Shown here one piece after another: positions 3,016 through 37,263 of a stretch of 64,000 nt of DNA. Every line of letters begins with the position of its first letter. The stretch's first letter is position 1. The DNA is from an uncultured bacterium (GTDB lineage: Bacteria; Acidobacteriota; Thermoanaerobaculia; Multivoradales; J023): the NCBI GenBank assembly GCA_965371445.1, contig CBDUYN010000035.1:127-64126 (forward strand), given 5' to 3'. A model generated the notes under the pieces. It was not told the DNA's origin. It saw only the letters and a list, made by a program, of their open reading frames with translations, and searched no databases. The translations under genes and the position numbers were made by a program.

Positions 3016-3086
3016 CGGTTCTCGGCCGTTCTCGTCGGTGGCGTCGTGCTGGCGATTCTACACAGGGAGGCGTCCCGCGAACAGGT

Positions 3087-3962: not shown

Positions 3963-4058
3963 GGTCTTTCTCCCAGGTCCGGCGTCAGGGTATCACCAGG
4001 TGGGGCGGAAGCGTTGTTCCAGTTGACGGCCGGGAGGCCACGGCGGTAGCCTCCCGGT

Positions 4059-4319
4059 ATGCAAGACGTCGACCGCGACCTGGAGAAGCTACGACTCCTG
4101 CTCCGGAAGAAGATCGAGGAAAGCGGGTTGACCCAGACCGAGATCCAGCGCCGATGTGGCTGGGACCATGGATCGTTGAGCAAGATGCTGATCAGCAGCA
4201 AGACCATGAAGGTGGGAATGGTGCTGACCTTGCTCGACGTCCTCGGAGTCGAGCCCGGCCGGTTTTTCGGCCAGCTCTACGACATTGCGCGCCGCGAATC
4301 CGGCGAAGAGGTCCACTGA
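4059..4319 (+). CDS. XRE-family helix-turn-helix transcriptional regulator
   Basis: 86 aa. HTH_3-like segment (LRKKIEESGLTQTEIQRRCGWDHGSLSKM). Sits immediately upstream of the VWFA-domain gene. Confidence 0.55.
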   Translation: MQDVDRDLEKLRLLLRKKIEESGLTQTEIQRRCGWDHGSLSKMLISSKTMKVGMVLTLLDVLGVEPGRFFGQLYDIARRESGEEVH

Positions 4320-4333
4320 TCTTGGAGGAGACC

Positions 4334-5425
4334 ATGAAACCCAGATCCGGCACAGGTCGGGAGAAGGCATTCCGGTGGGCGGTGATCGCCTTCGTGGCAT
4401 GGGCCGCGCCGCCCTTGGCCGCGCAGAACAAGCCCTCCGAAGCCTTCGAGGGCCTGGTGGAGGTCTCGGAGGTCCTGATCGACGTCCTGGCTACCGACGG
4501 CGAAGGGCACCTGGTCCGTGGCCTTACGCTCGAAGATTTTGTCGTCGAGGAGGGGGGGCGTCCGGTCGAGCTGACGGGCCTGAGCTACTACACGACCCGC
4601 TACGGCGAGGAGGGCGCGGCGCCGGGCGAGGTCCCCGCGAGCCGCTACTTCGTCCTCTTCTTCCACGACCCGATACCCAACGCGGCCTATCAGGCGCGGC
4701 GCATCCGCCAGAAGCTCGTCGCCGGGCGCGACGCCCAGAGCTGGATCGAGACGGAGATGTCCGGATCCGACTGGGTCGCCGTGGTGAGCTGGGATTCGCG
4801 GCTCAAGGTGCACCAGGACTTCACGCAGGACCGCGACGCGTTGCTCTTCGCCGTCGAGCAGGCGATGAGCCGACGCGATCCCGAGAAGCTGGATCCGAGG
4901 CGCCGGCCGCCGGCCTCGGGGCTGCCTTCGCTGCTGCGCCGCCTGCCGAGCGGCAAAGCCCTGCGCCGGGCGAGCCGCGACATGAACGACGCCCTGAGCT
5001 TGCTCGCCGGAGCCGTGGGCTACATCGTGGGACGCAAGAACCTCCTGCTCTTTACCCACGGCTTCGGTCAGAACGACGCGGAGGCCCGCGAGCGGCGCCG
5101 CTACCCGGGGCGCGATCCCCAGGTGGCCCTAAACGACCACAACGTCGCCGTCTATCCGATCCACCTCGGCGGGCGTGGCTCCGGCCAGCCCCAGAGCGGC
5201 TACCTGGCCGAGCTCGCCGAGTCGACCGGCGGCTTCTACTACGAGAACCTCGACCACTTCCTTGCACCGCTCACCACGATCGGCGCCGAGAGCTTCGGCT
5301 ACTACGTCCTGAGCTTCCAGTCGCAGCATCCGGCGGGGGAGATCGGCTACGAGCAGGTCGAGGTCAAGGCGCGCGACGAGTCGATCCTGATCCGGGCGCG
5401 CCGCGGCTACCGTTACGGTCTTTAG
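4334..5425 (+). CDS. VWFA-related Acidobacterial domain protein (TIGR03436-like), secreted
   Basis: Start chosen at MKPRSG with a GGAGGAG Shine-Dalgarno. Signal peptide present. The N-terminal segment (VLIDVLATDGEGHLVRGLTLEDFVVEEGGRPVELT) matches the VWFA-related Acidobacterial domain pattern; VWA-like remainder. Confidence 0.7.
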   Translation: MKPRSGTGREKAFRWAVIAFVAWAAPPLAAQNKPSEAFEGLVEVSEVLIDVLATDGEGHLVRGLTLEDFVVEEGGRPVELTGLSYYTTRYGEEGAAPGEVPASRYFVLFFHDPIPNAAYQARRIRQKLVAGRDAQSWIETEMSGSDWVAVVSWDSRLKVHQDFTQDRDALLFAVEQAMSRRDPEKLDPRRRPPASGLPSLLRRLPSGKALRRASRDMNDALSLLAGAVGYIVGRKNLLLFTHGFGQNDAEARERRRYPGRDPQVALNDHNVAVYPIHLGGRGSGQPQSGYLAELAESTGGFYYENLDHFLAPLTTIGAESFGYYVLSFQSQHPAGEIGYEQVEVKARDESILIRARRGYRYGL

Positions 5426-5507
5426 CCCTCTAGACAGCGTTTCTCGTTCGTCGTAGATTGGTGGCCACGATCCGGCACGTTCAACCGAAGTCAACAAGGA
5501 GAGATCC

Positions 5508-8504: not shown

Positions 8505-8548
8505 GACAGCGGCCATCCCCGCTCTCCCTTCGGAGAGCGGGGCTCCCT

Positions 8549-10221: not shown

Positions 10222-11526
<1,305 letters not shown>

Positions 11527-20713: not shown

Positions 20714-21532
20714 ATGCCCGATGCAATGACCGAGACAGCCCTGGACCGTGGGACCCTGACCTACCCGACCTTTGCCGAGCTGCTACCGGAGCAGACCCTC
20801 ACCGAGGGCCGCTACGAGCTGCGCTTTGCGCGCACCTCGGAGGGGCTCGACGAGCTTCAGCGGCTGCGCTTCGAGGTCTTCAACCTGGAGATGGGGGAGG
20901 GGCTTGAGGCCTCCTACGAAACGGGCCGCGACGCTGACGAATTCGATCCTGTTTGCCACCACCTGATCGTCTGCGAGCGAGCCGGGGGCGCCATCATCGG
21001 CACCTACCGCTTGCAGACGAACGCCATGGCCGAGGCCCACGTGGGTTTCTACTCGTCGGGAGAGTTCGACCTCGCCGCTTTCGGCAAGGACGTGCTCCGG
21101 CAGTCCGTCGAGCTCGGACGGGCCTGTGTGGCCCACGAGCACCGCAACACCCAGGTGCTTTTCTTGCTGTGGAAGGGGTTGGCCCTCTACGTCGCCTACA
21201 ACCAGAAGCGGTACTTCTTCGGCTGCTGCTCGCTGACCAGCCAGGATCCCGTGGAGGGACGCGCGGTGACGGCTTACCTGGAGAAGCACGGTCACCTCCA
21301 CCCGGAGCTTCGCCTGGAGCCGCAGCCGGGGCTGCGGTGCTATCCTGCCGACGCGGAGCCCGACCCCCGGTTTCGCGTCAAGATCCCGAAGCTGTTCCGG
21401 ATCTACCTGCGCCACGGCGCCAAGGTCTGCGGAGCGCCGGCCATCGACCGGCAGTTCAAGACCATCGACTACCTGGTGCTCTTTGACGTCGAGGCGATGA
21501 GCGAGCGCCAAGTGCGGACCTTCTTCGGCTGA
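20714..21532 (+). CDS. GNAT-family N-acyltransferase of the OlsB / N-acyl amino acid synthase (FeeM-like, Acetyltransf_5) type
   Basis: Start at MPDAMTET within the longer ORF. Motifs typical of OlsB/NAS enzymes are present (DEFDPVCHHLIV, GTYRL, FKTIDYLVLFDVEAM). Confidence 0.8.
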   Translation: MPDAMTETALDRGTLTYPTFAELLPEQTLTEGRYELRFARTSEGLDELQRLRFEVFNLEMGEGLEASYETGRDADEFDPVCHHLIVCERAGGAIIGTYRLQTNAMAEAHVGFYSSGEFDLAAFGKDVLRQSVELGRACVAHEHRNTQVLFLLWKGLALYVAYNQKRYFFGCCSLTSQDPVEGRAVTAYLEKHGHLHPELRLEPQPGLRCYPADAEPDPRFRVKIPKLFRIYLRHGAKVCGAPAIDRQFKTIDYLVLFDVEAMSERQVRTFFG

Positions 21533-21560: not shown

Positions 21561-22058
21561 TTGACCCCGAATCGAAACATCCACTTCCTACTCCAGGGGC
21601 TGGAGCTCTTGGCCTCTCTGGATGCGGAGACCTACTCCACCCCGAGCGCTGGACGGTCGCCGATCGGCGCTCACCTGCGCCACGTGGTCGACTATTACCG
21701 CTGTTTCCTGCGGGGCCTCGAAGACGGACGCGTCGACTACGACGGCCGCGAGCGCGACCCCGGGATCGAGACCGATCCGAAGCAGGCGTCGACGGCGCTC
21801 CAAGACCTCGTGGAACGCTTCAAGGGCCTCGACCGCGACGGCGGCGGACGTCCCTTGGAGATCAAGGTCGACACCCGGGAAGACGAAGGCGACGTCTGGA
21901 GCCGCTCGACGGTGGCCCGCGAGCTCCAGTTCCTGATCAGTCACACCGTGCATCACTACGCGCTCATCGCGATCCAGCTGCGCCAGCACGGTATCGATCC
22001 CGGGGAAGCCTTTGGTGTCGCGCCGTCGACGCTCGACTACCGGCGTCGGAAGTCCTGA
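21561..22058 (+). CDS. DinB/YfiT-like (DinB_2) putative metal-dependent hydrolase
   Basis: 165 aa. His-rich DinB_2 signature (GAHLRHVVDYY ... ISHTVHHYALI). Confidence 0.7.
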   Translation: MTPNRNIHFLLQGLELLASLDAETYSTPSAGRSPIGAHLRHVVDYYRCFLRGLEDGRVDYDGRERDPGIETDPKQASTALQDLVERFKGLDRDGGGRPLEIKVDTREDEGDVWSRSTVARELQFLISHTVHHYALIAIQLRQHGIDPGEAFGVAPSTLDYRRRKS

Positions 22059-22819
22059 TGTGTACGGTGAGCTGGCTCTACGGCGCCGGCGGCTACGAGC
22101 TCCTGATGAACCGTGACGAGCTCCGCCGCCGGAGCTGGGCGGTCGCGCCGCGGCGCTTCGAGCGCCAAGGCGTGGCCTACCTGGCCCCCGAGGACGGCGA
22201 CGCCGGAGGCACCTGGATCGCCGTCAACGAGCTCGGAATGACCGTGGCGCTGCTCAATCGCTATCCCGACCGCGGCGGAGTTTTCGTCAGCCGTGGTCTC
22301 CTGACCAAGGAGCTGGCGACCTCGACGAGCGTCGAGGAGGCCGTCGAGCGCTTGACCGAGCGCGGGCACGACGCCCTCAACTACCGGCCTTTCACTCTCC
22401 TGCTCCTGGAGCCCGAGAGCGAGCCGACCGTCCTCCTCTGGGACGGGGAGCTCCTCGCCCAGGTCACCGAGGCCGTGGCGCCGCCGCTGTCGTCGTCGTC
22501 GCTTCATCCGCAGGAGGTCGCTCCGGTGCGGCGGCGGTTGTGGCGCCGGTTGGTGGGGGAGGCGCCGTCGTCCTCCGTGCTGGTGGGCTTCCACCGCAGC
22601 CACGAGCCGGAGCGCGGAGCGTACTCGCCTTGCATGCACCGCGACGACGCACGCACGGTGAGCCTCACCCACGTCCGGGTGACGCCGGCGGCGGTCGCCG
22701 TGAGCTACGCCGACGGTCCGCCGTGCTCGGCCGAGCTTTCGCACCCGCTGACCCTGATGCGCCGGGCCGCGCCGTCGCGCTGGGCCCTGCCAACGCATCA
22801 TGCCGCGCCCGTCGGCTGA
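22058..22819 (+). CDS. NRDE-family (TANGO2-like) protein
   Basis: N-terminus MCTVSW...LLMNRDE is the hallmark of PF05742. The ATG overlaps the stop of the upstream gene (TGATG). Confidence 0.8.
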   Translation: MCTVSWLYGAGGYELLMNRDELRRRSWAVAPRRFERQGVAYLAPEDGDAGGTWIAVNELGMTVALLNRYPDRGGVFVSRGLLTKELATSTSVEEAVERLTERGHDALNYRPFTLLLLEPESEPTVLLWDGELLAQVTEAVAPPLSSSSLHPQEVAPVRRRLWRRLVGEAPSSSVLVGFHRSHEPERGAYSPCMHRDDARTVSLTHVRVTPAAVAVSYADGPPCSAELSHPLTLMRRAAPSRWALPTHHAAPVG

Positions 22820-25430
22820 GGCGCCCCCGGCTGAGGCGCCCCCGGCTGAGGCGTCGCCGCGGCGAAGGTGGCTACGGCTCCTCGCCGTCCTCTACCTGGC
22901 GCTGCTGGCCACCTCGCACCTCGTCCGCTGGTGGACGGCGGACGACGCCGAGCTGCCACCCGGTGCCCGGGAGATGGAGCTTCCGGCCTTCGTGGGTGAC
23001 CGTGAGGTCGAGGGCGAAAAGGTTCGCCTCGCCTACTACGAGTGGGACGACGGTACGCCGCGGCCGCAGGCGGCACCCCCGGTGGTCCTTTTGCTCCACG
23101 GCAGCCCGGGAAGGGGAGGGAGCTTCGCGCGCCTGGCGCCGCTTCTTGCCGAGCGCTTTCGCGTCCTCGGACCCGACCTGCCGGGCTTTGCGTCGTCCGA
23201 ACGCCGGATCCCCGACTACTCGATCCGCGCCCACGCCCGCTACGTCGAGGCCTTTCTCGACGAGCTCGGGATCGACGAGGTCCACGTCGTGGGCTTCAGC
23301 ATGGGGGGCGGCGTGGCCCTGGAGATGGCCGCCCGGCAGCCGGAGCGTCTGCGTTCCCTGACGCTACTCTCGTCGATCGGCGTCCAGGAGCTCGAGCTCC
23401 TGGGGAGCTACCACCTGAACCATGCGGTCCACGGCCTGCAGCTGGGCGCCCTGTGGCTCCTCCGCGAGACGGTGCCTCACTTCGGCGTCTTCGACGTCGG
23501 CGCGGTCGCCTACGCCCGGAACTTCTACGACACCGACCAGCGTCCTCTCGAGGGGATCTTGAAGACCCTGGAGATGCCGGTCCTGATCGTCCACGGCGAA
23601 GACGACGTCTTGGTGGGCGTGGAGGCGGCGTACGAGCATCATCGATTGGTACCGCAAAGCGAGCTGGAGCTGTTTGACGCGAGCCACTTCATGGTCTTCC
23701 TCCAACCCGAGGAGCTCGCCGAAGCCCTCGCCGCGTTCGTCGAGCGGGTGGAACGGGGGGAGGGACGCAGGCGGGCTGCGGCCGATCCCGAACGAGTGGC
23801 CGCGGCCGCCGCGGAGCGCGTCGCTCTGCCCGAGATCCACGGCTTCGGCCTCGTGGTCTGGATGGCGCTCGCCGCGGCGGCGACGCTGGTGAGCGAGGAC
23901 TTGACCTGTATCGGAGCGGGTCTCTTGATCGCCAAGGGGCGGGTGGCTTTTTTCCCCGCGGCCCTGGCCTGCTTTCTGGGCATTTTCCTGGGTGACCTCA
24001 TGCTCTATTTCGCGGGCCGGCTCGGACGAGGGTGGCTCGGCCGGGCACCGCTGCGCTGGATCGTGCGTCCGGCCGACGTCGAGCGCAGCCGGGCGTGGTT
24101 CGAGCGCCGTGGTGGGCTCGTCATCTTCCTCAGCCGCTTCCTGCCGGGGACTCGCCTGCCCACCTACGTGACGGCGGGCCTCCTGCGGATGAACGCTTTT
24201 TGGTTCACCCTCCAGCTGCTGGTCCCGGTCGCCCTCTGGACGCCGCTCCTGGTGGGCGCCGCGCAGCTCCTGGGCGAGCAGGCCTTCGCGTCGCTCGACC
24301 TCTTCGAGCGCTACGCCCTGCCGGGTTTCGTCGGCCTCCTGCTCGGGGTCTGGACCGTCCTGACCCTGGGCCGTTCACTCGCCACCCACCGCGGCCGGCG
24401 GCTCTTGCGCGGTTGGTGGCGGCGCAAAGTGGAGTGGAAGCTCTGGCCGGTCTGGCTCTTCTATCTGCCCGTCGTGGCTCGGGTCCTGGGGCTCGGCATC
24501 CGGTACCGGGGGCTGACGCTCTTCACGGCGGCGAACCCGGGGATACCGGCGGGGGGCGGCTTCATCGGCGAGTCCAAGGCGGAGATCTTGTCGCGGCTCG
24601 ATCCGCGCTGGGTGGCAACGTTTCGTCCGGTACCGGGAGAGCTGGCCCTCGCCGAGCGGCTGGCGGCGGTGCGTGCCTTCCGGAAAAGGAATGGCTTCGG
24701 CTTCCCGGTGGTCCTCAAGGTCGACCAGGGACAGCGCGGCGCCGGGGTGAGGATCGCCCGCTCCGAGGAGGACGTCGTCCACTTCTTCAGGACGACGCCG
24801 CAGGACGCGATCGTCCAGGAGTACGTCCCGGGGCCGGAGCTCGGGGTCTTCTACGTGCGGCTGCCGGGCGAGGAGCAGGGACGGATCTTCTCCGTCACCG
24901 ACAAGCGGCTGCCGTCGGTCGTGGGCGACGCTCGCTCGACCCTGGAGGAGCTCGTCCTGGACGACGAGCGCGCGGTGGCGATGGCACCGGTCTACCTGAA
25001 GGCATTGGGGGAGCGGAGCGCGGAGGTGCCTGCGGCGGGGGAAGAGGTGCGGCTCACCGAGCTCGGCACGCACTGCCGCGGCGCCGTCTTCCTCGACGGC
25101 GCGCGCTTCGCCACGCCGCGGCTCACCGAGGCCGTCGAGCGGATCAGCCGCAGCTTCGACGGCTTCTACTTCGGGCGCTACGACCTGAAGGCGCCGTCCT
25201 ACGAGGCCTTCGAAGCCGGACGTGACCTGAAGGTCCTGGAGCTGAACGGCGTGACCTCGGAAGCGACCCACGTCTACGATCCGCAGGTTCGTCTCGTCGA
25301 CGCCTACCGGGTGCTCTTCGAGCAGTGGCGCCTGGCCTTCGAGGCGGGGGCTCGAAATCGCGACCGCGGAGTGGAACCGGTGGGGCTCCTCGAGCTCCTC
25401 CGTATGCTGGTCGCGTTCCGGATGCTATGA
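22800..25430 (+). CDS. three-domain fusion protein: alpha/beta-hydrolase fold + DedA/VTT (SNARE-associated) membrane domain + RimK-like ATP-grasp ligase domain
   Basis: 876 aa.
- N-terminal alpha/beta hydrolase: HGSPG oxyanion region, GFSMGG nucleophile elbow, and a downstream D...H.
- Central polytopic VTT/DedA segment (GGLVIFLSRFLPGTRLPTYVTAGLLRMNAFWF).
- C-terminal ATP-grasp (FPVVLKVDQGQRGAGVRIARSEEDV; IVQEYVPGPELGVFYV; LKVLELNGVTSEA).
- An N-terminal AEAPP tandem repeat is present. Confidence 0.8.
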   Translation: MPRPSAEAPPAEAPPAEASPRRRWLRLLAVLYLALLATSHLVRWWTADDAELPPGAREMELPAFVGDREVEGEKVRLAYYEWDDGTPRPQAAPPVVLLLHGSPGRGGSFARLAPLLAERFRVLGPDLPGFASSERRIPDYSIRAHARYVEAFLDELGIDEVHVVGFSMGGGVALEMAARQPERLRSLTLLSSIGVQELELLGSYHLNHAVHGLQLGALWLLRETVPHFGVFDVGAVAYARNFYDTDQRPLEGILKTLEMPVLIVHGEDDVLVGVEAAYEHHRLVPQSELELFDASHFMVFLQPEELAEALAAFVERVERGEGRRRAAADPERVAAAAAERVALPEIHGFGLVVWMALAAAATLVSEDLTCIGAGLLIAKGRVAFFPAALACFLGIFLGDLMLYFAGRLGRGWLGRAPLRWIVRPADVERSRAWFERRGGLVIFLSRFLPGTRLPTYVTAGLLRMNAFWFTLQLLVPVALWTPLLVGAAQLLGEQAFASLDLFERYALPGFVGLLLGVWTVLTLGRSLATHRGRRLLRGWWRRKVEWKLWPVWLFYLPVVARVLGLGIRYRGLTLFTAANPGIPAGGGFIGESKAEILSRLDPRWVATFRPVPGELALAERLAAVRAFRKRNGFGFPVVLKVDQGQRGAGVRIARSEEDVVHFFRTTPQDAIVQEYVPGPELGVFYVRLPGEEQGRIFSVTDKRLPSVVGDARSTLEELVLDDERAVAMAPVYLKALGERSAEVPAAGEEVRLTELGTHCRGAVFLDGARFATPRLTEAVERISRSFDGFYFGRYDLKAPSYEAFEAGRDLKVLELNGVTSEATHVYDPQVRLVDAYRVLFEQWRLAFEAGARNRDRGVEPVGLLELLRMLVAFRML
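22816..22850 (+). repeat. 15-bp direct tandem repeat (ggctgaggcgccccc, about 2.3 copies) encoding AEAPP peptide repeats at the N-terminus of the fusion protein
   Basis: gaggcgcccccggctgaggcgcccccggctgaggcg, seen directly in sequence. Confidence 0.5.
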
Positions 25431-25459
25431 TCGTGCCGATCATAATCCGGAGACCAGCC

Positions 25460-26056
25460 ATGCGACTCGACGAAACCTACGTTCCCTTCGCGAATCCTGC
25501 CGACCAGATGGAAAAAGGCCTGGAGCTCTGCCGCCGGGGCAACTGGGAGGACGGCCTGGAGCAACTGCGGATGGCGGCCGAGAGGATGCCGTCGGGCGAC
25601 GCCAAGCCGAGCCGCTACTACTCCTACCTGGGCTACGCCATCGCGCTGCGGGAGAAGAAGCTCCGTGAGGGAATCAAGCTCTGCCGATACGCCATCAAGC
25701 AGGAGTTCTACCAGCCTGAGAACTACTGCAACCTGGCGCAGACCTACCTCCTGGCGGGGAACCGGTCCGGGGCCATGAAGGCGGTGGCCAAAGGGCTCAA
25801 GGTCGACGCCAACTTTCCGCTGCTGCTGCAGCTTCACGCCAAGCTGGGCGCCCGGCGTCCGGCGGCGGTCCCGTTCCTCTCGCGGAACAATTTCCTCAAT
25901 CAGATGCTCGGGCGGATACGTCATTCGATGAAGTCTTCGAAGGAGAAGGCGGCGAAGGCGAAAATCGCGGCGCAGGCGAGGAAAGCGGCGGGAGCGAAGA
26001 AGAAAATGGCGGCGAAGAGGCCGCCGAACCGTGCGCCGAGAAAGTCGGCCCCTTAG
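25460..26056 (+). CDS. TPR-like repeat protein with Lys/Ala-rich basic C-terminal tail
   Basis: Start at MRLDETYV with a GGAGA Shine-Dalgarno. TPR-like helices (YYSYLGYAIAL, NYCNLAQTYLLAG). C-terminus KEKAAKAKIAAQARKAAGAKKKMAAKRPP. Confidence 0.5.
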   Translation: MRLDETYVPFANPADQMEKGLELCRRGNWEDGLEQLRMAAERMPSGDAKPSRYYSYLGYAIALREKKLREGIKLCRYAIKQEFYQPENYCNLAQTYLLAGNRSGAMKAVAKGLKVDANFPLLLQLHAKLGARRPAAVPFLSRNNFLNQMLGRIRHSMKSSKEKAAKAKIAAQARKAAGAKKKMAAKRPPNRAPRKSAP

Positions 26057-26361: not shown

Positions 26362-27405
26362 ATGGGAGAGGCGCAGAACGGCGTCAACGTCGTCGTCCTC
26401 GACGCTTGCCGCGACAATCCCTTCCGCGGCTTCCGGACCTTGAGCCGCGGCTTGGCGCAGACCCGTGCGCCGAAAGGGACGCTGATCGCCTACGCCACCG
26501 CGCCGGGCGACGTGGCGGCCGACGGCGACGGCCGGAACGGCATCTTCACGGGGCATCTGCTCCAGGCGTTCCGCGAACCGGGCCTCCAGATCGAGCAGGT
26601 CTTCAAGAAGGCGCGCGAGGCCGTCGATGCGGCGACCGGCGGACGGCAAGTGCCTTGGACGTCCTCGTCGCTGGTCGGAGAGCTGGTGCTCGCGAAGAAG
26701 GAGCCCGCACCCGCGTCGCCTCCGCCACCCGTCGTGCAGGAAGGCGCGCTCGAGCTTGCCCTGTGGGAAGAAGTCAAGGACAGCGAAGCCGTCGCAGAGT
26801 TACGGGCCTACCTGAGGAGCTATCCCGAGGGCACTTTCTCGGAGCTTGCGCGCCTGCGGGTTCTTAAGCTTGAGATTTTGCCGCCGAGGCAGCCGCGGCC
26901 CGGACAGGAGTGGACGGATCCCGGAACCGGAATGACCCTGCGATACATTCCGGCTGGAAAGTTCATGATGGGAAGCCCCAAAGACGAAGTCGATCGCGAG
27001 GAGGATGAAATCCGGCACGAGGTAGAGCTGACCCGAGGCTACTGGATGGGAGAGACGGAGGTGACCCACGGACAGTGGCTGGAGCTGATGGGAAACAACC
27101 CTTCCGCTTTCTCAAGCTGCGGAGATGACTGTCCGGTGGAAACCGTAAGCTGGTACGACGCGGTGACGTTCGCGAACCGGCTGTCGGAAAAGGCCGAACT
27201 GCCCGGTTGCTATGAGCTGACCTGCGAGGGATCCCCGGGTGAGAAGGGATACGTCTGCTCCACGGTAGAGTTGAAGGATCTGACCTGCGAAGGATATCGG
27301 CTGCCCACGGAGGCTGAATGGGAGCACGCGTCCGGAGCGGAGGGCGAAGGAGCCTCGGGTGCGCTCTGGCTCCTTCTCAGTCCGTCCCGGATGCGAAGAG
27401 GCTGA
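26362..27405 (+). pseudogene. gene remnant: caspase-like (peptidase C14) C-terminal portion fused to a formylglycine-generating-enzyme (FGE/SUMF1)-like domain; truncated at both ends
   Basis: - The ORF begins directly at the C14 catalytic-Cys region (VVVLDACRDNPF). The upstream His-containing half is absent, and an in-frame stop lies 2 codons upstream.
- The FGE-sulfatase-like domain (YIPAGKFMMGSP...RHEVELTRGYWMGETEVT...YRLPTEAEWEHA) stops about 100 aa short of a complete FGE fold.
- The region is lower-GC than its flanks. Confidence 0.55.
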
Positions 27406-27495
27406 CCGGCTCGGAGTCGTCTTGAGCGCCAGGACTTGTCCGAACGCCCGAGAGTAGCTACAATCGTCCTGCACAAGATTGGCGAAACCCACCAG

Positions 27496-27690
27496 ATGCC
27501 GAGGAAAGTCAGAGAGCTGGTCAGGGACTTGACGAAGGCGGGGTTCGTCGAGTCAGGAGGCAAGGGCAGCCACAGGAGATTCAAGCACACCGGTGGAGCC
27601 AAGGTGACGGTCAGCGGAAATCTGGGCGCAGACGCCAAAGCCTACCAGGAGCTGGAAGTGACCCGCGCGATTCAGGAGTCTCAGCGATGA
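27496..27690 (+). CDS. hicA: HicA-family mRNA interferase toxin
   Basis: Start at MPRKVRELVRDL. HicA/YcfA signature (GGKGSHRRFKH). The stop overlaps the hicB start (ATGA). Confidence 0.7.
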   Translation: MPRKVRELVRDLTKAGFVESGGKGSHRRFKHTGGAKVTVSGNLGADAKAYQELEVTRAIQESQR

Positions 27691-28238
27691 AGGAACGTGA
27701 CCAGTATCTCAAAGTCGTCCAGTGGTCTGAAGTGGACCAGTGCTATGTCGGCACTTGCCCTGGCTTCGTCCTGGGTGGCGTTCACGGCGACGACGAGGTG
27801 GAGGTGTATCGGGAGCTTTGCGAGGTCGTCGACGGATGGATTCAGACCTTCCACGAGGACGGAGAGCCTTTGCCCCCCGCCACCGCGGCGCCGGAGCCTT
27901 CCGAGACGGAAGCCTGGCTTTTGAGTGGGAGGCCGAGATCTGCCTCCAAACTCGTAGATCCGCGCCTCTACCGGCTGCTCGACGATCAGGGCACAGGCAG
28001 TGAAGTGGCAGAGCCTCGGACCCCCTACGGCGACGAAATCGACGAGCCTCGTGCCGAGCTCGCTTCTCTCATCCAAGAAGCCGTCCTGCCCTGGACCCGA
28101 ATCGCCAGTTGGACGGATGCCGAAAAAATCCGCTCCGAGGTGGAACGGAGGATCCGTCGACATCTCAAGGCAGCCCGCTATTCCCGCGAAGCCGCCACGA
28201 GTCTCGTCCCGAAGATCGTCGGACTTCTTCGTGACTAG
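27687..28238 (+). CDS. hicB: HicB-family antitoxin (UPF0150 N-domain) with extended C-terminus
   Basis: N-terminal HicB fold pattern (YLKVVQWSEVDQCYVGTCPGFVLGGVHGDDEVEVYRELCEVVDGWI). Translationally coupled to hicA. The 3' end overlaps the convergent kinase gene by about 70 nt, so the true stop may lie earlier. Confidence 0.6.
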   Translation: MKERDQYLKVVQWSEVDQCYVGTCPGFVLGGVHGDDEVEVYRELCEVVDGWIQTFHEDGEPLPPATAAPEPSETEAWLLSGRPRSASKLVDPRLYRLLDDQGTGSEVAEPRTPYGDEIDEPRAELASLIQEAVLPWTRIASWTDAEKIRSEVERRIRRHLKAARYSREAATSLVPKIVGLLRD

Positions 28239-31200
28239 CGAGCCCGCTTGAATCGTCCAGGGAGGAGAGCGCTTCCGCCGCCTGGTCGGCGAAGCGTGGA
28301 AAGCCCAGGGCGCGTGCCTCCTCGGCGAGCGGCGTGAGCAGATCTCTGCCCGCCTCCTCGTCGCCGGTCTCCAGCAGCATCCGTCCGAGCGCGAGGCGGG
28401 GACGGAACCGAAGAGCCGGAAAATGTCGCGTGACGTCGCCTTCGGCGACCAGGGCTTCCAGGGTCTGCCGCGCGGCTTCCACGTTGCCGCCGGCCAGGTC
28501 GATCCGGGCAGAGACCCCGAGCCGGTCCAGCCGGACGGGGAAGGCTTCCTGGGAGAGCCCTGGTTGCTCGAGTAGCGGTGCCAAAACCTGCCGGGCCTCT
28601 TGGGGCTTCCCTTGGTCCAGGAGGACCTGGGCCAGCGCTCTCCGTGCAAGCGGGGGAGGAAGCTCCGGGCTCGCTGCCGTCAGCTCACGTATCCGTGCCT
28701 CGGCCTGTGACGGGCTCCCCAGGAGAGTCGCTGCCGTGAGGTCGAGCTGGGTCTGCATCCAGGCGTTCCCGGTGGCGCCCCAGTGCTGGGCCGCGGTTTC
28801 AAAGAGGCGGCGGGCTTCGCGATCCTCCCCACGGTAATAGTAGACGTAGGCCAAGGTTTCCGACGCCATGGCCAGGATGAGCTCGGCTTCCATCTCTCGG
28901 CCCGCGGCGAGCGCTTCTCTGGCTCTTCGCTCGGCCCGTTCGAGCTGCCCTAGCTCGACGAGGAGCCTCGCCGACTTGCTCGCGGACATGCCGACGGCGA
29001 AGAGGTGGCCTCCCTGCCGGGCGTTGAGCAGCGCTTCCTCGAACAGCTCCGCGGAGCGCGGCGGATCTTCGGTCGAGATCTGGCCGGCCAGGTTGGAGAG
29101 GAAGCCGGCCGTCATGGTGAGGTTTCCCGCCTCCCGAGCCTTTTGTGCCGCCTCTTCAAAGAGCTCGACGCTGCGGGCCGGATCGGAAAGGTGGAGCCGG
29201 GCCCCCTGGAGGCTCAAGGCCTCGGCTTCCGTCTGGCGGTCGCCGGTCTTTCGAGCGAGCTCCAGAGCTTCGGCGAGCATCTCCTGGGCCGGGCGCTCTT
29301 CGTCCGATTCCCTTGCCAGCCAGACGAGCGCCAGGGCCGTACCTCGCAGGTCGCCGACTTCGCGGAACGTCTCCAGGGCGTCCCAGTACGTCAAGGCGAG
29401 CCCCGCCCGCTCGGCGGGGAGGTGCCGCAAGACGACGGCGAGGTGGAGCAGAGCCCGTGCCAGGGCGAGGCGGTCACCGCGCTCCTCGAAGATCTCGCGG
29501 GCCTGGGCGAGAGCGCTCCTCGCCTCCTCGCCCCGTCCCAGGCCGAACAGGGCCTCGGCCTCGTGAAGCCGGGCCTCGGCGAGGAGCGCTTCGGCGTCCA
29601 GGGCCTCGGCGGCCTCCGCGGCCCGTCCGGCGGCCCGGCGTTGACGCTCCAGCACGCCGCGCTTGCGGGCCGCCGCCGCTTCGGCGAGGTCCATGCGCGC
29701 CTCGACGTACGGGCCGCCGCCCATCCGCCGGTTGTGGCGCCGGAGCTCCACCACCGTCGCAAGAGCCGCCAGGGGATCGCCGGAAGCCGTCTCCACCGCC
29801 GCCAGGCGCAGGCCGTGCTCGACCTCTTCGGGGTGCTCGTGCCACAGCTCCTCGTAGATCCGCCGCGCCGGCTGCCAGTCTCGCGCCAGCTCCCGGTAGA
29901 GTCCCTCGATCAGCAGCCGTTCTTCCCGCGGCAACGGCTCCGTCATCTCGAACGCCCGGCGAGCCGCCGCCGTGGCCCGGGTCTCCCAGCCGATCTCCGA
30001 CCAGCAACTCGCCAGCGCCGAGTGGACCTTCACCGCTTCGGGCTCGGCGGCGGCCGCCGCCGTCAGCAACTCGCTGGCTTCCCGGAGGTCGTAGCGGCGC
30101 AGCCTCTCCAATCCCCAGGTGTAGAGCCGCTTTCCCTCGGCGCTCACCGGCAGGCCGGCTTGAGCCGTCCGGGGCTCGCCGGCCGCCGGGGCGAGGACCT
30201 GAGAGGCGGAATCGGAGGGGCGGGTCTCGACGGTTGGGCGCCTGAGGAAGAGCGCCGCAACGAGGAGGACGGCGAGGAGCGCCGCCGCGCCGCCCACGGC
30301 GCCGAAAGTCCTCGGGGACAGTGCTCTCTCCTCCGCCAGTTGCGCGGCGAGCTCACCGGCGTGCCGGAAGCGCTCGTCGGGGCGCCGTCGCAGACAACGC
30401 AGCACGGCCGCTTCCCACCGGCGATCGAGCTCTGGCCGATGCATCGTGAGAGCCGGCGGATCCTCCGTGAGACGAAGCCGCGCGGTCTCTTGCGGCGTTG
30501 TGCCGCGAAAGGGCAGGACGCCGGTCAGCATCTCGTAGATCACCACCCCGAACGAGTAGACGTCGGCAGCCGGCGTCGCCGCCGCACCCGCTACCATTTC
30601 GGGAGCCGCGTAGGCCGGCGTCCCGCCGCCGGAGGCCGTCGTGTCGGATCGGCCGCGGGGTCCCCCGAGCATCTCCTGAGCGACGCCGAAGTCGGTCACC
30701 ACGACGCGGATCCCCGCGTCGGATTCGACCAGCAGGACGTTGGAGCTCTTGAAGTCGCGATGGATCACGCCGGCCTGATGGGCCGCGTCGAGCGCCGCGG
30801 CCATCTCCCGGATCAGGGGAAAGGCCTCCTCAAGCTCGAACGGTCCTTCGCGGCGAAGTCGCTCGGCCATGGTCTCGCCCCGCACGAGCTCCATGGTGAG
30901 GAAAAGGATCGACGGGCTCTCCTGGCCCCAGGCCAAGCGGTCCCGGTGTTGGAAGAGGTCGAAGATCCGGCAGACGTTGGGATGGGTCACCTGGCGGGCG
31001 AGGTGGATCTCGCGCTTGAAGCGCTCGGCCGATCCCTTCTGCCGGACGAGGTCGGGACGGATCACCTTCAAAGCCACCGCGGTGCCGAGCTCCAGGTCCT
31101 CGGCCTCGAAGACCTGTCCCATCCCCCCCTGGCCCAGCAGCCGGACGATGCGGAAGCGCTCGCCGACCTCCTCGCCCGGCGCGAAGGTCGCGACCGTCGG

Positions 31201-31272
31201 CGCGCCGCCGGAGGCGATCCCGGCCTCCGGCGTGGTCAGCGTCTGGGTAGGCTCGTGCAGGTCGTCTTTCAT
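28165..31272 (-). CDS. Hanks-type serine/threonine protein kinase with single TM helix and extensive C-terminal TPR repeats
   Basis: 1035 aa.
- Kinase subdomains: GQGGMGQVF, AVALKVI, HRDFKSSNVLL, DFGVA, GTPAYAAPE.
- Followed by a TM segment (ALLAVLLVAALFL).
- About 650 aa of TPR-like helical repeats. Confidence 0.85.
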   Translation of the reverse strand: MKDDLHEPTQTLTTPEAGIASGGAPTVATFAPGEEVGERFRIVRLLGQGGMGQVFEAEDLELGTAVALKVIRPDLVRQKGSAERFKREIHLARQVTHPNVCRIFDLFQHRDRLAWGQESPSILFLTMELVRGETMAERLRREGPFELEEAFPLIREMAAALDAAHQAGVIHRDFKSSNVLLVESDAGIRVVVTDFGVAQEMLGGPRGRSDTTASGGGTPAYAAPEMVAGAAATPAADVYSFGVVIYEMLTGVLPFRGTTPQETARLRLTEDPPALTMHRPELDRRWEAAVLRCLRRRPDERFRHAGELAAQLAEERALSPRTFGAVGGAAALLAVLLVAALFLRRPTVETRPSDSASQVLAPAAGEPRTAQAGLPVSAEGKRLYTWGLERLRRYDLREASELLTAAAAAEPEAVKVHSALASCWSEIGWETRATAAARRAFEMTEPLPREERLLIEGLYRELARDWQPARRIYEELWHEHPEEVEHGLRLAAVETASGDPLAALATVVELRRHNRRMGGGPYVEARMDLAEAAAARKRGVLERQRRAAGRAAEAAEALDAEALLAEARLHEAEALFGLGRGEEARSALAQAREIFEERGDRLALARALLHLAVVLRHLPAERAGLALTYWDALETFREVGDLRGTALALVWLARESDEERPAQEMLAEALELARKTGDRQTEAEALSLQGARLHLSDPARSVELFEEAAQKAREAGNLTMTAGFLSNLAGQISTEDPPRSAELFEEALLNARQGGHLFAVGMSASKSARLLVELGQLERAERRAREALAAGREMEAELILAMASETLAYVYYYRGEDREARRLFETAAQHWGATGNAWMQTQLDLTAATLLGSPSQAEARIRELTAASPELPPPLARRALAQVLLDQGKPQEARQVLAPLLEQPGLSQEAFPVRLDRLGVSARIDLAGGNVEAARQTLEALVAEGDVTRHFPALRFRPRLALGRMLLETGDEEAGRDLLTPLAEEARALGFPRFADQAAEALSSLDDSSGLASHEEVRRSSGRDSWRLRGNSGLP

Positions 31273-33923: not shown

Positions 33924-34952
33924 ATGATCAACTCCGTCGAGATCGAGAACTTCCGCGGGATTCGCCGGGGAGCCTTGAAGGACCTGGGCGCGTTGACGAT
34001 CCTTACCGGGCCCAACGGCTGCGGCAAGAGCACGATCGTCGATGCTCTGTTGATCGCGGCGAGCCCGAAGCCCTGGGAGGGTGTCGGGCAAGCCGTGGAG
34101 CGTCATCGGGCGACCCACGACGGCGCTCGTTGGCTCATCGGGCGCGAGGGTGAGGCGGCAAGGATCTTCGTGAAAACACAACGCACAAGAGGCAGCGAGT
34201 TGAAATGGGAACGGATTCCGATTGCCGAGGCATCTGGCGGCATTCCGCCTCACAGCCGGATATGGATTACCGTGGTTGATTACGTCGGGGACTTGCAGGA
34301 GAATACATTCTTCGCCGCCGGCTACAAGGAGATAGTGTTCTCCGGGGATGGTTCCTATACACCGGGGCAGAGTGGTGGCATTCCCATTCCCTCTTCTCCT
34401 CTGGGTCACGTCCGGCTAGTGGATTCCTCTACACCCGTCCCCCTCGACGAGGCGTTTTCCGGAACTTTCCGGCAAGGCCGCAAGAAGGACGTATTGGCGC
34501 TTCTGGAAGCTCTCGTCTCGGATCTGGACGGAGTCGAGATCCTCGTCGAGGACGACAGGACACCGATGGTGTACGTCGATGACGGTCGGAACCGCGTTCC
34601 CGCCAGTCTCTCAGGAGACGGCATATACGCTTTTCTTCAGCTGGCTCTGGAGCTCGCTGCAAGCCCCGGAGGTCTCGTCCTCGTCGAGGAGCCTGAAGTC
34701 TTTCAGCATTTGCGCGCCATCCGACAGTCTGCCCGAGCTCTGGTCGCGGCCGTTCGCCGCGGTGTCCAGATCGTCGTTACGACTCACAGCCTGGAACTGA
34801 TCGACGCCATACTCGGCGAATCTGAGGAGGAGGACCGCGAACGACTCGTGCTGTTCAATCTCCTGCTCAGCGACGGCGAGCTCAAATCCAGCCGTTTTCC
34901 CGGGCCGGATGTCGCCTTTGCTCGCGAATCCATGGAGAAGGATCTGCGATGA
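33924..34952 (+). CDS. ABC-type AAA ATPase (AAA_15/AAA_21, OLD/AriA-like) - ATPase component of a two-gene putative defence module
   Basis: N-terminus IENFRGIRRGALKDLGALTILTGPNGCGKSTIVDAL (Walker A). Also ABC signature-like LSGDG, Walker B (LVLVEEPEVFQH) and H-loop (VVTTHSLELID). Region GC is about 58% versus about 69% in the flanks. Confidence 0.75.
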   Translation: MINSVEIENFRGIRRGALKDLGALTILTGPNGCGKSTIVDALLIAASPKPWEGVGQAVERHRATHDGARWLIGREGEAARIFVKTQRTRGSELKWERIPIAEASGGIPPHSRIWITVVDYVGDLQENTFFAAGYKEIVFSGDGSYTPGQSGGIPIPSSPLGHVRLVDSSTPVPLDEAFSGTFRQGRKKDVLALLEALVSDLDGVEILVEDDRTPMVYVDDGRNRVPASLSGDGIYAFLQLALELAASPGGLVLVEEPEVFQHLRAIRQSARALVAAVRRGVQIVVTTHSLELIDAILGESEEEDRERLVLFNLLLSDGELKSSRFPGPDVAFARESMEKDLR

Positions 34953-35689
34953 CGCGTCAGCACGTCATCCTTTGCGAAGGCTTCGACGATCGAGCGTTCT
35001 GGGCCGGTTGGCTTATCTACCTCGGGTGCCAGGATCAAGGACGGCGTCGCCCCGTATACGACGCTTGGGGCGAAGAGGTCAAGAACGGAAAGTATCTCTT
35101 CACGACGCGTGGCGCCTCGAACGTCTTAGTCGACCCGGTCCATGGAGGGAGCGAGGTCCGGGCAACGGCGATGACCTACTTCCGTCAGCACAATACCAAA
35201 CCGATCGGTCGAATGATTGTCAACATTGACTCGGACGCCGAAGGAGAGGGCCGTACGTCGAGCGCGCGTGAGGTCATCGCGGGTATCGTCCGCGACTACG
35301 ACGGAGGAGCCGTCGGTGATCTGGATGGCCCCCATTCCATCGACGATGTTGAGGTTTGGCCTGTCGTCTGGGAATGTCTCGACTCTGGCGAGATTCCTGG
35401 GATCCCCCGCCAGCAAACACTCGAACGGCTTGCAGCTGCCGCAATCGTAGCTGCTTATGCGGAACGAGGTGAACCGGTCCAGCGTTGGCTCGAGGCTGAG
35501 CCAGTCGAGGAGAACACGAATCACAAGAACTACGGCATGTCCTATTTCGCCAAGTGGTATGCTCAACGCCACGGTCACGGTGACTTCTATCGAGCCCTGT
35601 GGCGCGACGAGGCCGTCGCTGAGCAGCTCAAGGCCAGGTTGACGGCGACCGGCGCCTGGCAGCTGGTAGAAGAGTTGGTGGCGGATTAA
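34949..35689 (+). CDS. Toprim-like (DUF4435/DUF4276/OLD-C-terminal-like) putative nuclease partner of the upstream ABC ATPase
   Basis: ATGA start/stop overlap with the ATPase gene. N-terminal HVILCEGFDDRAFW (a Toprim-like conserved Glu) and a later IVNIDSDAEGEG (DxD). Low-GC composition. Family assignment is by motif only. Confidence 0.55.
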   Translation: MTRQHVILCEGFDDRAFWAGWLIYLGCQDQGRRRPVYDAWGEEVKNGKYLFTTRGASNVLVDPVHGGSEVRATAMTYFRQHNTKPIGRMIVNIDSDAEGEGRTSSAREVIAGIVRDYDGGAVGDLDGPHSIDDVEVWPVVWECLDSGEIPGIPRQQTLERLAAAAIVAAYAERGEPVQRWLEAEPVEENTNHKNYGMSYFAKWYAQRHGHGDFYRALWRDEAVAEQLKARLTATGAWQLVEELVAD

Positions 35690-35716
35690 ACCAGCCTGTC
35701 ATTCAAAAGGAAGAAG

Positions 35717-35971
35717 ATGCTTTTCATCAAATCATTCAAAGGCTACGAGGACCGCATCAGCGAGATCGACAGCGAGGTCAACGCCTGGGTCCTGGCGCAG
35801 GGCGCCACTATCCAGGTCATGGACGTCAAGATCGCCTTGGCTCACGAGCCGGGTTCAAGCTCCGGCATGGGCGACCTGATCTACGTCGTGGTCTACCGCG
35901 CCGACTTGCCCGCGCCGGAAATGCCGCCGGCCGGAGCGGTTGGCGGCAGGCCGGAAGGATTCGAATACTGA
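35717..35971 (+). CDS. small hypothetical protein (84 aa)
   Basis: ORF with a lower-GC 5' half. Its stop overlaps the ATG of the downstream TPR-like gene (TGATG). Confidence 0.4.
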   Translation: MLFIKSFKGYEDRISEIDSEVNAWVLAQGATIQVMDVKIALAHEPGSSSGMGDLIYVVVYRADLPAPEMPPAGAVGGRPEGFEY

Positions 35972-37263
35972 TGGGACTTTTTGACCTCTTCAAGAAAGAC
36001 CCGGAGAAGCTCCTCGAGCGCGCCGGGAAACTCCTCGAACGCGGCGATCCGGCCCAGGCGCTGCGGCTGGCCCGCCAGGCGGGAGCAGACCCGCGCGCTG
36101 GCGAGATCGTGCGCCGTGCCCGCGAAGCCCTGGTCGAGGCCGGTCTCGAACGCGCCAAGAAGGCCGAGGAGTCGGATTACCTCGACGACGCCGTGGAATG
36201 GATCCGCAACGCCGCCGAGAACGTCGACGGCGCGCGCCGCGAGGAGCTCTTGGCCCGTGCCGAGGCGCTGCTCAAGCGGGCCGAGTCCGAGGCCGAGCGC
36301 CGCGCCGCGCAGGCGCTCGCCGCGTCCGAGCCCGTCGCTGATGCCGCCGAGGACGGCGGCATCAGCAAGGTCGACGTCGCCTACGACGCCCTCGTCGGCA
36401 TGCTCGACGACGACCTCGCCGATCGCTACGACGAGCAGCCGGAGGCCTTTCGGCGCGCTTTCGTCGATCTGAACGAAGGCCGTGCCGAGGCGGCGCGTCC
36501 GGTCCTCGAAGAGCTCGCCGACGAGGGCCCCGGGGACACCGTAAGGCGCTTTGAGCGCGGCCGTTGCCGGCTCCACGACGGCGAATACCAGGGGGCCCGC
36601 GAGGATTTCGAAGCGGTGTGGCAGAGCTTCGGCGACGAGCCAATCGACCGCGTAGGGACCCTCTCGGTGCCCGGCCTCTGGGCCGAGGCCATGCTGGGAC
36701 TGAGCAAGACCGCCGAGCTTCTCGAACGCCTCGACGGCGTCGCCGACCCGAGCCACGGCGACCCCAACCTCTGCCGCCGCTACGCGGCCGCCCTCGTCCA
36801 GGAGGAAAAGCTCGACGACGCCGAGCGCTTTCTCGTCCAGGCGACCGGCACGTTCTCCCAGGATTCGGACTTCCCGTTCCAACTGGCAGTGGTCCTGAAG
36901 CGCCAAGGCCGTACAGACGAGGCCATCGACTGCCTGGAAGGGTCGGTCGCCCCAAGCTGTGCGCCGGCCACCTGCGGCCGGGTGCCGAAGCACTTGCCGT
37001 CGCTGCGTGCCCTCGCGCGCCTCTACCTCAACGAGCGTCGCGCTCCGGATCGGGTCCATGTTTTGCTCGACCACATCGCCCAGGCGCTCGCCGGACAGCT
37101 CGGACGCGAGGACTACGTCCTGATGGCCGAATACCACGAGCAGGTCGGCGACGTGGAAGGCGCCCGCGAGGCCCGTGCCGCGGCTCAGCACGCGGGCGAG
37201 AGCACCGCGGAGCCGGCGGCCGGCGCGTCTCCGAGCCTGACCTCGGGTCGGCGCGTCCTCTAG
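35971..37263 (+). CDS. TPR-like helical repeat protein (hypothetical)
   Basis: 430 aa, all-helical with TPR-like segments. Native high GC. Confidence 0.55.
   Translation: MGLFDLFKKDPEKLLERAGKLLERGDPAQALRLARQAGADPRAGEIVRRAREALVEAGLERAKKAEESDYLDDAVEWIRNAAENVDGARREELLARAEALLKRAESEAERRAAQALAASEPVADAAEDGGISKVDVAYDALVGMLDDDLADRYDEQPEAFRRAFVDLNEGRAEAARPVLEELADEGPGDTVRRFERGRCRLHDGEYQGAREDFEAVWQSFGDEPIDRVGTLSVPGLWAEAMLGLSKTAELLERLDGVADPSHGDPNLCRRYAAALVQEEKLDDAERFLVQATGTFSQDSDFPFQLAVVLKRQGRTDEAIDCLEGSVAPSCAPATCGRVPKHLPSLRALARLYLNERRAPDRVHVLLDHIAQALAGQLGREDYVLMAEYHEQVGDVEGAREARAAAQHAGESTAEPAAGASPSLTSGRRVL

Follow-up and report, generated by a model that had tools for sequence, protein, structure and literature searches.

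An alpha/beta-hydrolase, DedA and ATP-grasp fusion protein encoded beside OlsB-like genes: a candidate enzyme-transporter for amino-acid lipids

What could a cell do with a serine hydrolase, a membrane transporter domain and an ATP-dependent ligase that are joined in one polypeptide? This question is raised by a gene in a 64,000-nucleotide stretch of contig CBDUYN010000035.1 (assembly GCA_965371445.1) from an uncultured bacterium of the phylum Acidobacteriota; in what follows, "the window" means this whole stretch. The gene encodes a protein of 876 amino acids (the fusion protein) with an alpha/beta-hydrolase domain, a DedA (VTT) membrane domain and an ATP-grasp domain, and a gene for an OlsB-like N-acyltransferase lies a short distance upstream. 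On the basis of its sequence and by analogy with known systems, we propose that the fusion protein may act as an inner-membrane enzyme-transporter, that is, as a ligase, a flippase and a periplasmic lipase, for an amino-acid lipid made by the OlsB-like enzyme. We put the probability of this reading at about 0.5.

The initial annotation of this stretch had recognised a single polypeptide with three domains from six peptide motifs, all of which we find in the fusion protein at the kinds of site described: HGSPG at residue 100 and GFSMGG at residue 165 in the hydrolase domain, LSRFLPGTRLPTYVTAGLLRM beginning at residue 444 in the DedA domain, and VVLKVDQGQRGAGVRIA at residue 637, QEYVPGPELGVFYV at residue 673 and LELNGVTSE at residue 813 in the ATP-grasp domain. 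The list of open reading frames (ORFs) contains no interruption or frameshift within the 876 codons, and full-length homologues align with the protein from end to end, so the gene does not fall apart into two or three. A joining of three genes by frameshift or assembly error is therefore ruled out, because the frame is intact and the same layout is common to hundreds of homologues. Domain searches agree with the description as well: Pfam matches back the hydrolase and VTT domains, and profile and fold searches back the ATP-grasp domain. We checked the layout on full-length homologues consisting of the best 120 of 2,319 protein matches and 80 genomic loci, and found the same three domains in every one. 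Residue conservation was taken from an alignment of 35 full-length homologues, in which all three domains look catalytically intact, judging by the residues described below. The structure of the full-length protein predicted by AlphaFold2 (AF2) has a predicted local distance difference test (pLDDT) score of 84.8, and in a Foldseek search of this model against the PDB the matches were to hydrolases only; for this reason, the C-terminal domain was modelled on its own.

For that C-terminal domain, the RimK ATP-grasp model of Pfam is a near miss when the full protein is searched (20.3 bits, cut-off 21) and passes when the domain is isolated (22.2 bits), and 13 of 20 family members match it at E <= 0.01. 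A phmmer search of residues 546-876 against the PDB returned only weak matches to biotin-carboxylase B domains. With a family profile built from 20 trimmed members, we obtained matches to the ATP-grasp (G) domain of cyanophycin synthetase 1 (E 1.7e-8), to a Gloeothece chain, 7ta5 (E 8.6e-8), which is deposited as 'glutathione synthase' but titled cyanophycin synthetase 2 in the Foldseek listing, to Ddl (E 1e-6) and to GshF (E 4e-6). The profile alignment spans the region from the PvvlKP lysine to the E-x-N magnesium site, and K640 and E814/N816 of the fusion protein align with PvviKP and vEvN of cyanophycin synthetase. These residues are invariant in the family, as are G644, R646, G647, Q673, E680, R793 and D795. 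The AF2 model of residues 546-876, calculated from an alignment of 41 diverse sequences, has a mean pLDDT of 95.5 and a predicted template modelling score of 0.92. Foldseek relates this model to cyanophycin synthetases, GshF and many Ddl structures with probability 1.00, E-values down to 1.6e-9 and a query-normalised template modelling score (TM-score) of up to 0.54; there are 410 PDB matches at E <= 1e-3, and the best 50 of them are all ATP-grasp ligases (cyanophycin synthetases, GshF, Ddl, VanA and one PurD). Both the profile and the structure searches rule out that a chance motif had been over-read, and the C-terminal domain is, by its profile matches and modelled fold, a genuine ATP-grasp ligase.

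Within the ATP-grasp superfamily, the closest relatives of this ligase work on an amino acid or peptide, whose alpha-carboxylate they activate before adding an amino acid to it. The G domain of cyanophycin synthetase, GshF and Ddl share with the ligase the fold, the PvvlKP lysine, the glycine-rich loop and the E-x-N site, while sequence identity is just 10-23%. In the AF2 model, the 60 or so residues ahead of the central domain form a hydrophobic helix and short helices, with no separate pre-ATP-grasp domain evident. A conserved NPG...GESK segment and a hydrophobic membrane wedge appear to take the place of the Rossmann-like N-terminal domain. The Mur-ligase-like M domain and the N domain of cyanophycin synthetase are lacking as well, the alignment with that enzyme being confined to the ATP-grasp part (profile positions 89-273).

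The membrane wedge is a hydrophobic helix-Pro-helix segment, in which W546, W549, Y555 and P557 are invariant and which is modelled with pLDDT >95; between it and the last DedA helix lies a cluster of basic residues (529-545). The segment is kept at the N-terminus of two relatives that consist of the ATP-grasp domain alone (P0144 and P0246). We read it as an anchor, monotopic or at the surface, by which the active site of the ligase would be kept on the membrane, and such membrane tethering would set this family apart from cyanophycin synthetase, GshF and Ddl.

The hydrolase domain is matched by Abhydrolase_1 of Pfam with E 1.1e-35 (residues 94-200) and by Abhydrolase_6 (residues 96-309). In NCBIfam, apart from a match to UptA that concerns the DedA domain, the fusion protein has generic hydrolase matches only. 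The candidate triad S167 (in GFSMGG), D269 and H296 and the oxyanion motif H100-G104 are invariant, and Foldseek finds hydrolases in the PDB at E ~1e-11 with a target-normalised TM-score of up to 0.74. Among solved structures, the best sequence match is PlaF (6i8w, phmmer E 2.9e-19), which is also in the Foldseek list, at 26% identity over 325 columns, the highest identity listed. By its sequence, then, the domain is a Ser-Asp-His serine hydrolase of the alpha/beta fold and PlaF-like. PlaF of Pseudomonas aeruginosa is a phospholipase A1 that is anchored to the inner membrane by an N-terminal helix and has its catalytic domain in the periplasm (PMC9132575). The fusion protein likewise has an N-terminal transmembrane anchor followed by the hydrolase, but PlaF is a stand-alone protein of 322 residues acting on glycerophospholipids, whereas here the hydrolase is joined to a transporter and a ligase.

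For most DedA proteins, a nearly universal family, the substrate is not known. In the fusion protein, VTT_dom matches residues 373-487 with E 9.8e-13 and 49.1 bits, the gathering score of Pfam being 33.9, so the domain stands above the threshold for the family that includes YqjA and YghB of E. coli, UptA and the eukaryotic scramblases TMEM41B and VMP1. The first re-entrant region carries the invariant residues E366 and D367 and the second carries R446 and R452, and a short AF2 helix (residues 452-461) fits the second re-entrant hairpin. According to the survey of DedA proteins by Todor et al., an acidic first tip and two arginines six residues apart in the second are the pattern of the COG0586 subfamily, and the fusion protein has both. 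Unlike in UptA and the other DedA proteins compared, its two acidic residues are adjacent. Within NCBIfam, the UptA model for the undecaprenyl-phosphate transporter (NF052604) scores 51 bits, far under its equivalog cut-off of 250 bits, and we therefore do not regard the domain as simply equivalent to UptA. The fusions that Todor et al. name for COG0586 and COG0398 involve rhodanese, PAP2 and pyridine-nucleotide-disulphide oxidoreductase domains, and the third subfamily is almost always single-domain; a hydrolase or an ATP-grasp domain is not among the fusion partners named.

A word-indexed protein search gave 2,319 proteins that match the fusion protein at E <= 1e-5. The best 120 of these are 778-954 residues long and 50-65% identical to it, and all have hydrolase and VTT matches in Pfam. 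Public records name such homologues 'alpha/beta fold hydrolase' (NCBI) or 'pimeloyl-ACP methyl ester carboxylesterase/membrane protein DedA' (JGI) and leave the ligase domain without annotation. When one genome per GTDB species was searched, at least 564 stretches encoded a relative. Among the matches listed, most carriers are Acidobacteriota (Thermoanaerobaculia and Blastocatellia), and the other labels are Gemmatimonadota, Calditrichaceae, KSB1, Rhodothermales, Desulfobacterales, Planctomycetota and Verrucomicrobiota; one carrier listed is cultured, 'Acidobacteria bacterium Mor1', whose locus L068 (CP011806) contains an OlsB-OlsA-DinB-fusion cluster. The nearest relative among the genome matches listed is a metagenome-assembled genome of the Thermoanaerobaculia, at 61% identity, which makes this class the probable origin of the window. 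The architecture had been called unusual at the outset. This is apt for annotation and literature, in that our literature searches found no paper on the fusion family, but not for occurrence, since the layout is common in Acidobacteriota.

The ligase domain alone has 2,783 cluster representatives in an exhaustive HMMER search, 1,144 of them at E <= 1e-30. It occurs in four architectures: with TANGO2, hydrolase and DedA domains in a protein of 1,121 residues (P0201); with hydrolase and DedA domains, as in the window; with a DedA domain only (about 520-600 residues); and alone (about 350-400 residues). What stays constant across the four is thus the ligase, which DedA usually accompanies and to which the hydrolase is an add-on.

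In the window, the fusion gene is the last of a four-gene operon, OlsB-like-DinB-TANGO2-fusion, in which all genes are on the same strand, gaps or overlaps are at most 29 nucleotides, and the end of the TANGO2 gene overlaps the start of the fusion gene by 20 nucleotides. To see how far this arrangement is conserved, we took the ORFs of 83 related loci and of the window, searched them with the neighbour genes of the window, and counted neighbours over the 64 non-redundant loci that have at least 2.5 kb of upstream sequence. An OlsB-like gene lies upstream of the fusion gene in 53 of the 64, a gene for an OlsA-like acyltransferase of the PlsC type (with NHLSYxD and FPEGT motifs) in 39, DinB in 44 and TANGO2 in 27, and one or more of the four are present in 58. 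The neighbours are nearly always on the same strand and directly upstream, most commonly in the order OlsB-(OlsA)-DinB-(TANGO2)-fusion. The PlsC-type gene, presumably OlsA, is found between the OlsB-like gene and DinB in most relatives (L009 at 5967-6803, L021 at 4440-5237, and 43 others), and it is missing in L004-L008, the closest Thermoanaerobaculia relatives of the window. A scan around the operon in the window gave no sigma-70-like promoter and no convincing terminator, which is uninformative for this phylum.

The linkage to OlsB, OlsA, DinB and TANGO2 persists through the changes of architecture. P0164, which consists of a signal peptide, a DedA domain and an ATP-grasp domain, closes an OlsB-OlsA-DinB-TANGO2 operon in which stops and starts overlap. 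The stand-alone ligases P0246 and P0247 are encoded in [DinB-like]-ATPgrasp-OlsB-OlsA operons, where the small proteins encoded upstream of them match the DinB protein of the window at E 1e-26 and 1e-32, and another stand-alone ligase, P0175, comes after DinB-TANGO2. In P0201, the TANGO2 domain is fused ahead of the hydrolase, DedA and ATP-grasp domains, a fusion of the Rosetta-stone type by which TANGO2 is linked in function to the rest of the system. The TANGO2 proteins encoded next to the family keep M1-C2-T3 and the NRDE motif at 90% conservation or more, features that presumably fit a cysteine N-terminal-nucleophile amidase or transferase. The DinB protein has conserved histidines at H41, H128 and H131/H132.

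Several other genes recur near the fusion gene in related loci. About 20 of the 64 loci, roughly a third (for example, L001 at 5965-8540 and L004 at 2817-5458), have a conserved set of four genes, often upstream of the OlsB-like gene, for a protein of ~90 residues, one of ~170 residues, a ferric-reductase-like transmembrane protein with a Rieske domain (~350 residues) and a membrane-anchored protein of ~250 residues. Three of the four have no Pfam match, and the set is also found ahead of DinB-TANGO2-ATPgrasp in L090; it is not in the window. Directly downstream of the fusion gene, 12 loci (such as L065 at 10593-11297) encode a secreted protein of ~235 residues with an HExxH motif and a weak Peptidase_M48 match, and 13 loci have a dehydrogenase of the SDR family downstream; both are absent from the window. 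BKACE and PP2C genes, which are neighbours in L001, were considered as linked genes and dropped because they were seen in only two loci.

The initial annotation had left the position of the hydrolase and the ligase relative to the membrane to topology prediction. Sequence features and analogies place the two domains, probably, on opposite faces, with the hydrolase in the periplasm and the ligase in the cytoplasm. As an ATP-using domain, the ATP-grasp ligase would have to be cytoplasmic. Tails rich in lysine and arginine stand ahead of the first helix in all 35 homologues, and the TANGO2 domain of P0201, which has no signal peptide, precedes the same helix; the N-terminus is thus predicted to be cytoplasmic and the hydrolase to lie outside, a layout that is also that of PlaF, with its N-terminal anchor and periplasmic catalytic domain. 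Since P0164 has a Sec signal peptide (MKRT...VWA|ES) directly ahead of its DedA domain, this domain would begin at the periplasmic face. The orientation agrees with the mapping of E. coli YqjA by cysteine accessibility, where positions 20, 52, 59 and 180 are periplasmic and 99, 117 and 217 are cytoplasmic (bioRxiv 10.1101/2021.10.18.464800).

With this topology, we infer the following order of steps. The OlsB-like enzyme, together with OlsA in most lineages, would make an amino-acid lipid (N-acyl or acyloxyacyl) whose carboxylate remains free. The ATP-grasp domain at the membrane surface would activate a carboxylate with ATP as an acyl-phosphate and couple it to an amine. Most likely, this carboxylate would be the free alpha-carboxylate of the N-acyl amino-acid lipid, to which an amino acid or another amine would be attached, because the nearest structural relatives (the cyanophycin synthetase G domain, GshF and Ddl) extend a C-terminal carboxylate. 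The DedA domain would then carry the lipid to the outer leaflet, where the PlaF-like hydrolase would remove or transfer an ester-linked acyl chain. Both enzymatic steps have partial precedents. Cerilipin is formed from ornithine lipid by an ATP-dependent reaction that transfers taurine to its carboxyl group; this reaction is known biochemically, its gene being unidentified (PMC12971839). OlsI, an alpha/beta hydrolase and thus a parallel to the hydrolase domain here, is the O-acyltransferase of the planctomycete ornithine-lipid pathway (PMC12493201). The second precedent is relevant because the window and its closest relatives have no OlsA in the cluster; there, the fused hydrolase may perform the O-acylation.

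The fusion family resembles the known aminolipid systems (OlsB/OlsA, OlsF and OlsH/OlsI) in that it is encoded with OlsB-like and OlsA-like genes. Each single domain belongs to a known superfamily. In the literature that we found, by contrast, there is no description of the fusion, of the membrane-tethered ATP-grasp subfamily, of the consistent coupling of this subfamily to OlsB/OlsA, DinB and TANGO2, or of the aminolipid modification and flipping pathway that would be implied. Two reviews of aminolipids do not mention DedA proteins or flippases and contain ATP-grasp only in a reference list, and full-text searches pairing DedA or ATP-grasp with aminolipid terms gave no paper on such components.

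Several points weigh against the proposed role. The tie of the family to lipids is drawn from gene sequences and gene order, and the sequence would allow the lipid to supply the ligase with either the carboxylate or the amine. DinB and TANGO2 are assigned no role. The OlsB-like protein scores 148 bits with the OlsB model of NCBIfam, under its equivalog cut-off of 350 bits, and its amino acid may therefore not be ornithine. No OlsA-like gene was matched by tblastn anywhere in the 64-kb window; 6 of the 64 loci have none of the OlsB-like, OlsA-like, DinB and TANGO2 genes, and for P0144, one of the four stand-alone ligases looked up, none of the linked genes is nearby. As regards topology, AF2 draws the first re-entrant region (residues 348-378) as one continuous helix with pLDDT 68-79 and no clear hairpin, and if this helix spans the bilayer, the hydrolase and the ligase would be on the same side. 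Finally, the closest DedA model is, though weakly, UptA.

This last point leads to a reading in which the substrate is a polyprenyl-phosphate precursor: the DedA domain would recycle or flip undecaprenyl phosphate or a lipid-linked intermediate, and the ATP-grasp domain would extend a peptide stem by an amino acid, in the manner of Ddl-type and D-aspartate ligases. Besides UptA being the top DedA match in NCBIfam, the two arginines of the second re-entrant region resemble those of the undecaprenyl-phosphate-flippase subfamily of Todor et al., and Ddl is among the fold matches of the ligase. We nevertheless consider this reading very unlikely, since the score of 51 bits is far below 250, the neighbourhood is consistently OlsB/OlsA, and no recurrent gene family for peptidoglycan or polysaccharide emerged from the neighbourhood analysis. 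The same neighbourhood bears on a reading modelled on MprF, an aminoacyl-phosphatidylglycerol synthase and flippase that has a partner hydrolase and uses aminoacyl-tRNA. Here, the ATP-grasp domain would esterify an amino acid onto a phospholipid such as phosphatidylglycerol, the DedA domain would flip the product, and the periplasmic hydrolase would take the amino acid off again, tuning surface charge. The logic of a synthase and flippase with a neighbouring, periplasm-facing hydrolase is indeed that of MprF, and some ATP-grasp enzymes form esters, VanA (a D-Ala-D-lactate ligase) being among the fold matches. The resemblance is one of concept, in that head-group chemistry, flipping and a periplasm-facing hydrolase are coupled: the two systems have no homologous domains, the energy source here would be ATP, and DedA differs in fold from the MprF flippase. 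Moreover, this reading does not explain the strong OlsB-like and OlsA-like linkage across architectures, the best match of the hydrolase is a phospholipase A1 acting on acyl chains and not a head-group esterase, and the hydrolase is dispensable in many relatives, so that we regard it as quite unlikely. It comes nearest to the idea of the initial annotation, a machine that edits a lipid head group on both sides of one bond. Of that idea, lipid head-group editing gains from the conserved OlsB-like and OlsA-like neighbourhood, while editing of the same bond by both enzymes gains no support. The nearest solved relative of the hydrolase cleaves acyl esters and not head groups, and the hydrolase module is optional, relatives with DedA and ATP-grasp or with ATP-grasp alone being found.

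A reading closer to our own keeps the pathway and changes the order of its steps. The ligase would act first and, in the manner of L-amino-acid ligases, make a soluble product, either a dipeptide or a conjugate of an amino acid with an amine; N-acylation of this product by the OlsB-like enzyme would follow, and the DedA and hydrolase domains would handle the finished lipid. Synteny sets a pathway and not the order of its steps, and Ddl, GshF and cyanophycin synthetase all work on soluble amino acids or peptides. What makes this order unlikely is that the ligase always comes with the conserved hydrophobic segment, even in its stand-alone forms, and is usually fused to a membrane transporter, which together suggest a membrane-resident substrate.

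A more specific form of our own reading is possible but doubtful: the membrane-tethered ATP-grasp ligase would use ATP to amidate the head-group carboxylate of acyloxyacyl amino lipids, for which cerilipin formation is the biochemical precedent, the DedA domain would be a dedicated aminolipid flippase, and both, with DinB and TANGO2, would form a new pathway, widespread in Acidobacteriota and several other phyla, for membrane lipids that have an extended head group and no phosphorus. If this were true, a DedA protein and a bacterial TANGO2 protein would gain a defined lipid substrate. In any case, this DedA domain, joined as it is to two enzymes and encoded in an aminolipid operon, gives a way in to the question of what one DedA subfamily transports, and the ATP-grasp family provides concrete candidates for the missing enzymes of ATP-dependent aminolipid head-group modification. 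By its linkage and its one fusion, a bacterial TANGO2 protein, whose human homologue is encoded by a disease gene, would be assigned to a defined lipid pathway. Note that the carriers amount to at least 564 species-level genomes, mostly of Acidobacteriota, a phylum that is abundant in soils and whose membrane lipid biochemistry is poorly understood. The positions of the operon and of the parts of the fusion protein are collected in Table 1.

Table 1. Operon genes and parts of the fusion protein, with positions in the window
Feature	Position	Strand	Residues	Basis or remarks
OlsB-like N-acyltransferase (Acetyltransf_5)	20720..21532	+		Pfam E 4.5e-31; start 20720 estimated, ORF opens at 20348
DinB-family protein	21561..22058	+		Pfam DinB_2 and DinB
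TANGO2/NRDE-family protein	22058..22819	+		Pfam TANGO2; begins Met-Cys-Thr
ORF of the fusion protein	22800..25430	+	1-876	Single frame; stop codon 25428-25430
15-bp tandem repeat	22813..22853	+		2.7 copies, 100% matches, score 82
N-terminal transmembrane anchor	22857..22934	+	20-45	Hydropathy and AF2 helix 20-45; RRR ahead of the helix
Alpha/beta-hydrolase domain	22965..23759	+	56-320	Pfam, invariant triad, Foldseek, PlaF match
DedA/VTT membrane domain	23832..24383	+	345-528	Pfam VTT_dom, invariant residues, AF2 helices
Hydrophobic helix-Pro-helix segment	24435..24503	+	546-568	W-E/K-x-W-P-x-W-x-F-Y-x-P; flanked by basic residues
ATP-grasp ligase domain	24504..25427	+	569-876	Profile search, AF2, Foldseek, invariant residues

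The initial annotation had also pointed to an AEAPP repeat encoded by a 15-bp DNA unit at the N-terminus. The repeat is present as described and codes for AEAPP-AEAPP-AEA(S)P in the N-terminal tail. It is missing in all 34 aligned homologues, whose tails differ freely in length; the best homologue is 64% identical to the fusion protein. AF2 gives pLDDT <50 over residues 1-18, so that the repeat sits in a low-confidence, non-conserved tail. The window holds 13 small tandem arrays, ~1 per 5 kb, of which the AEAPP array has the highest score. We consider the repeat an ordinary lineage-specific duplication.

The region downstream of the operon contains several genes of other kinds. The gene after the fusion gene (25325-26056, +) encodes a TPR protein with a tail rich in lysine and alanine, in which an imperfect 18-bp unit is repeated at 25944-26001 (3.2 copies, 70% matches). 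It is followed at 26362-27405 (+) by an ORF that joins an FGE-sulfatase-like domain to a partial caspase match (Peptidase_C14, C-terminal profile positions 120-230 only); since the caspase match begins at residue 9, the listed ATG is probably not the true start, and the gene either starts further upstream or is truncated. At 27436-28238 (+), a HicA toxin gene (84 residues, Pfam HicA_toxin) precedes an overlapping ORF of 183 residues with no Pfam match, which is likely to be a HicB-type antitoxin partner. On the opposite strand (28165-31272, -), there is a gene for a Ser/Thr protein kinase of 1,035 residues with a long TPR/MalT-like region. In 12 related loci, similar kinase-TPR proteins are encoded close to the fusion gene, in most cases downstream of it, and L003 also has one (1,049 residues, opposite strand); their recurrence may reflect a weak regulatory association or chance. 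Further along, an AAA_21/AAA_15 (AbiEii-like) ATPase is encoded at 33924-34952 (+). This gene lies in the only stretch of the window with clearly lower GC content (34001-36000; 0.60 vs about 0.67-0.70), which may be a small mobile or defence island.

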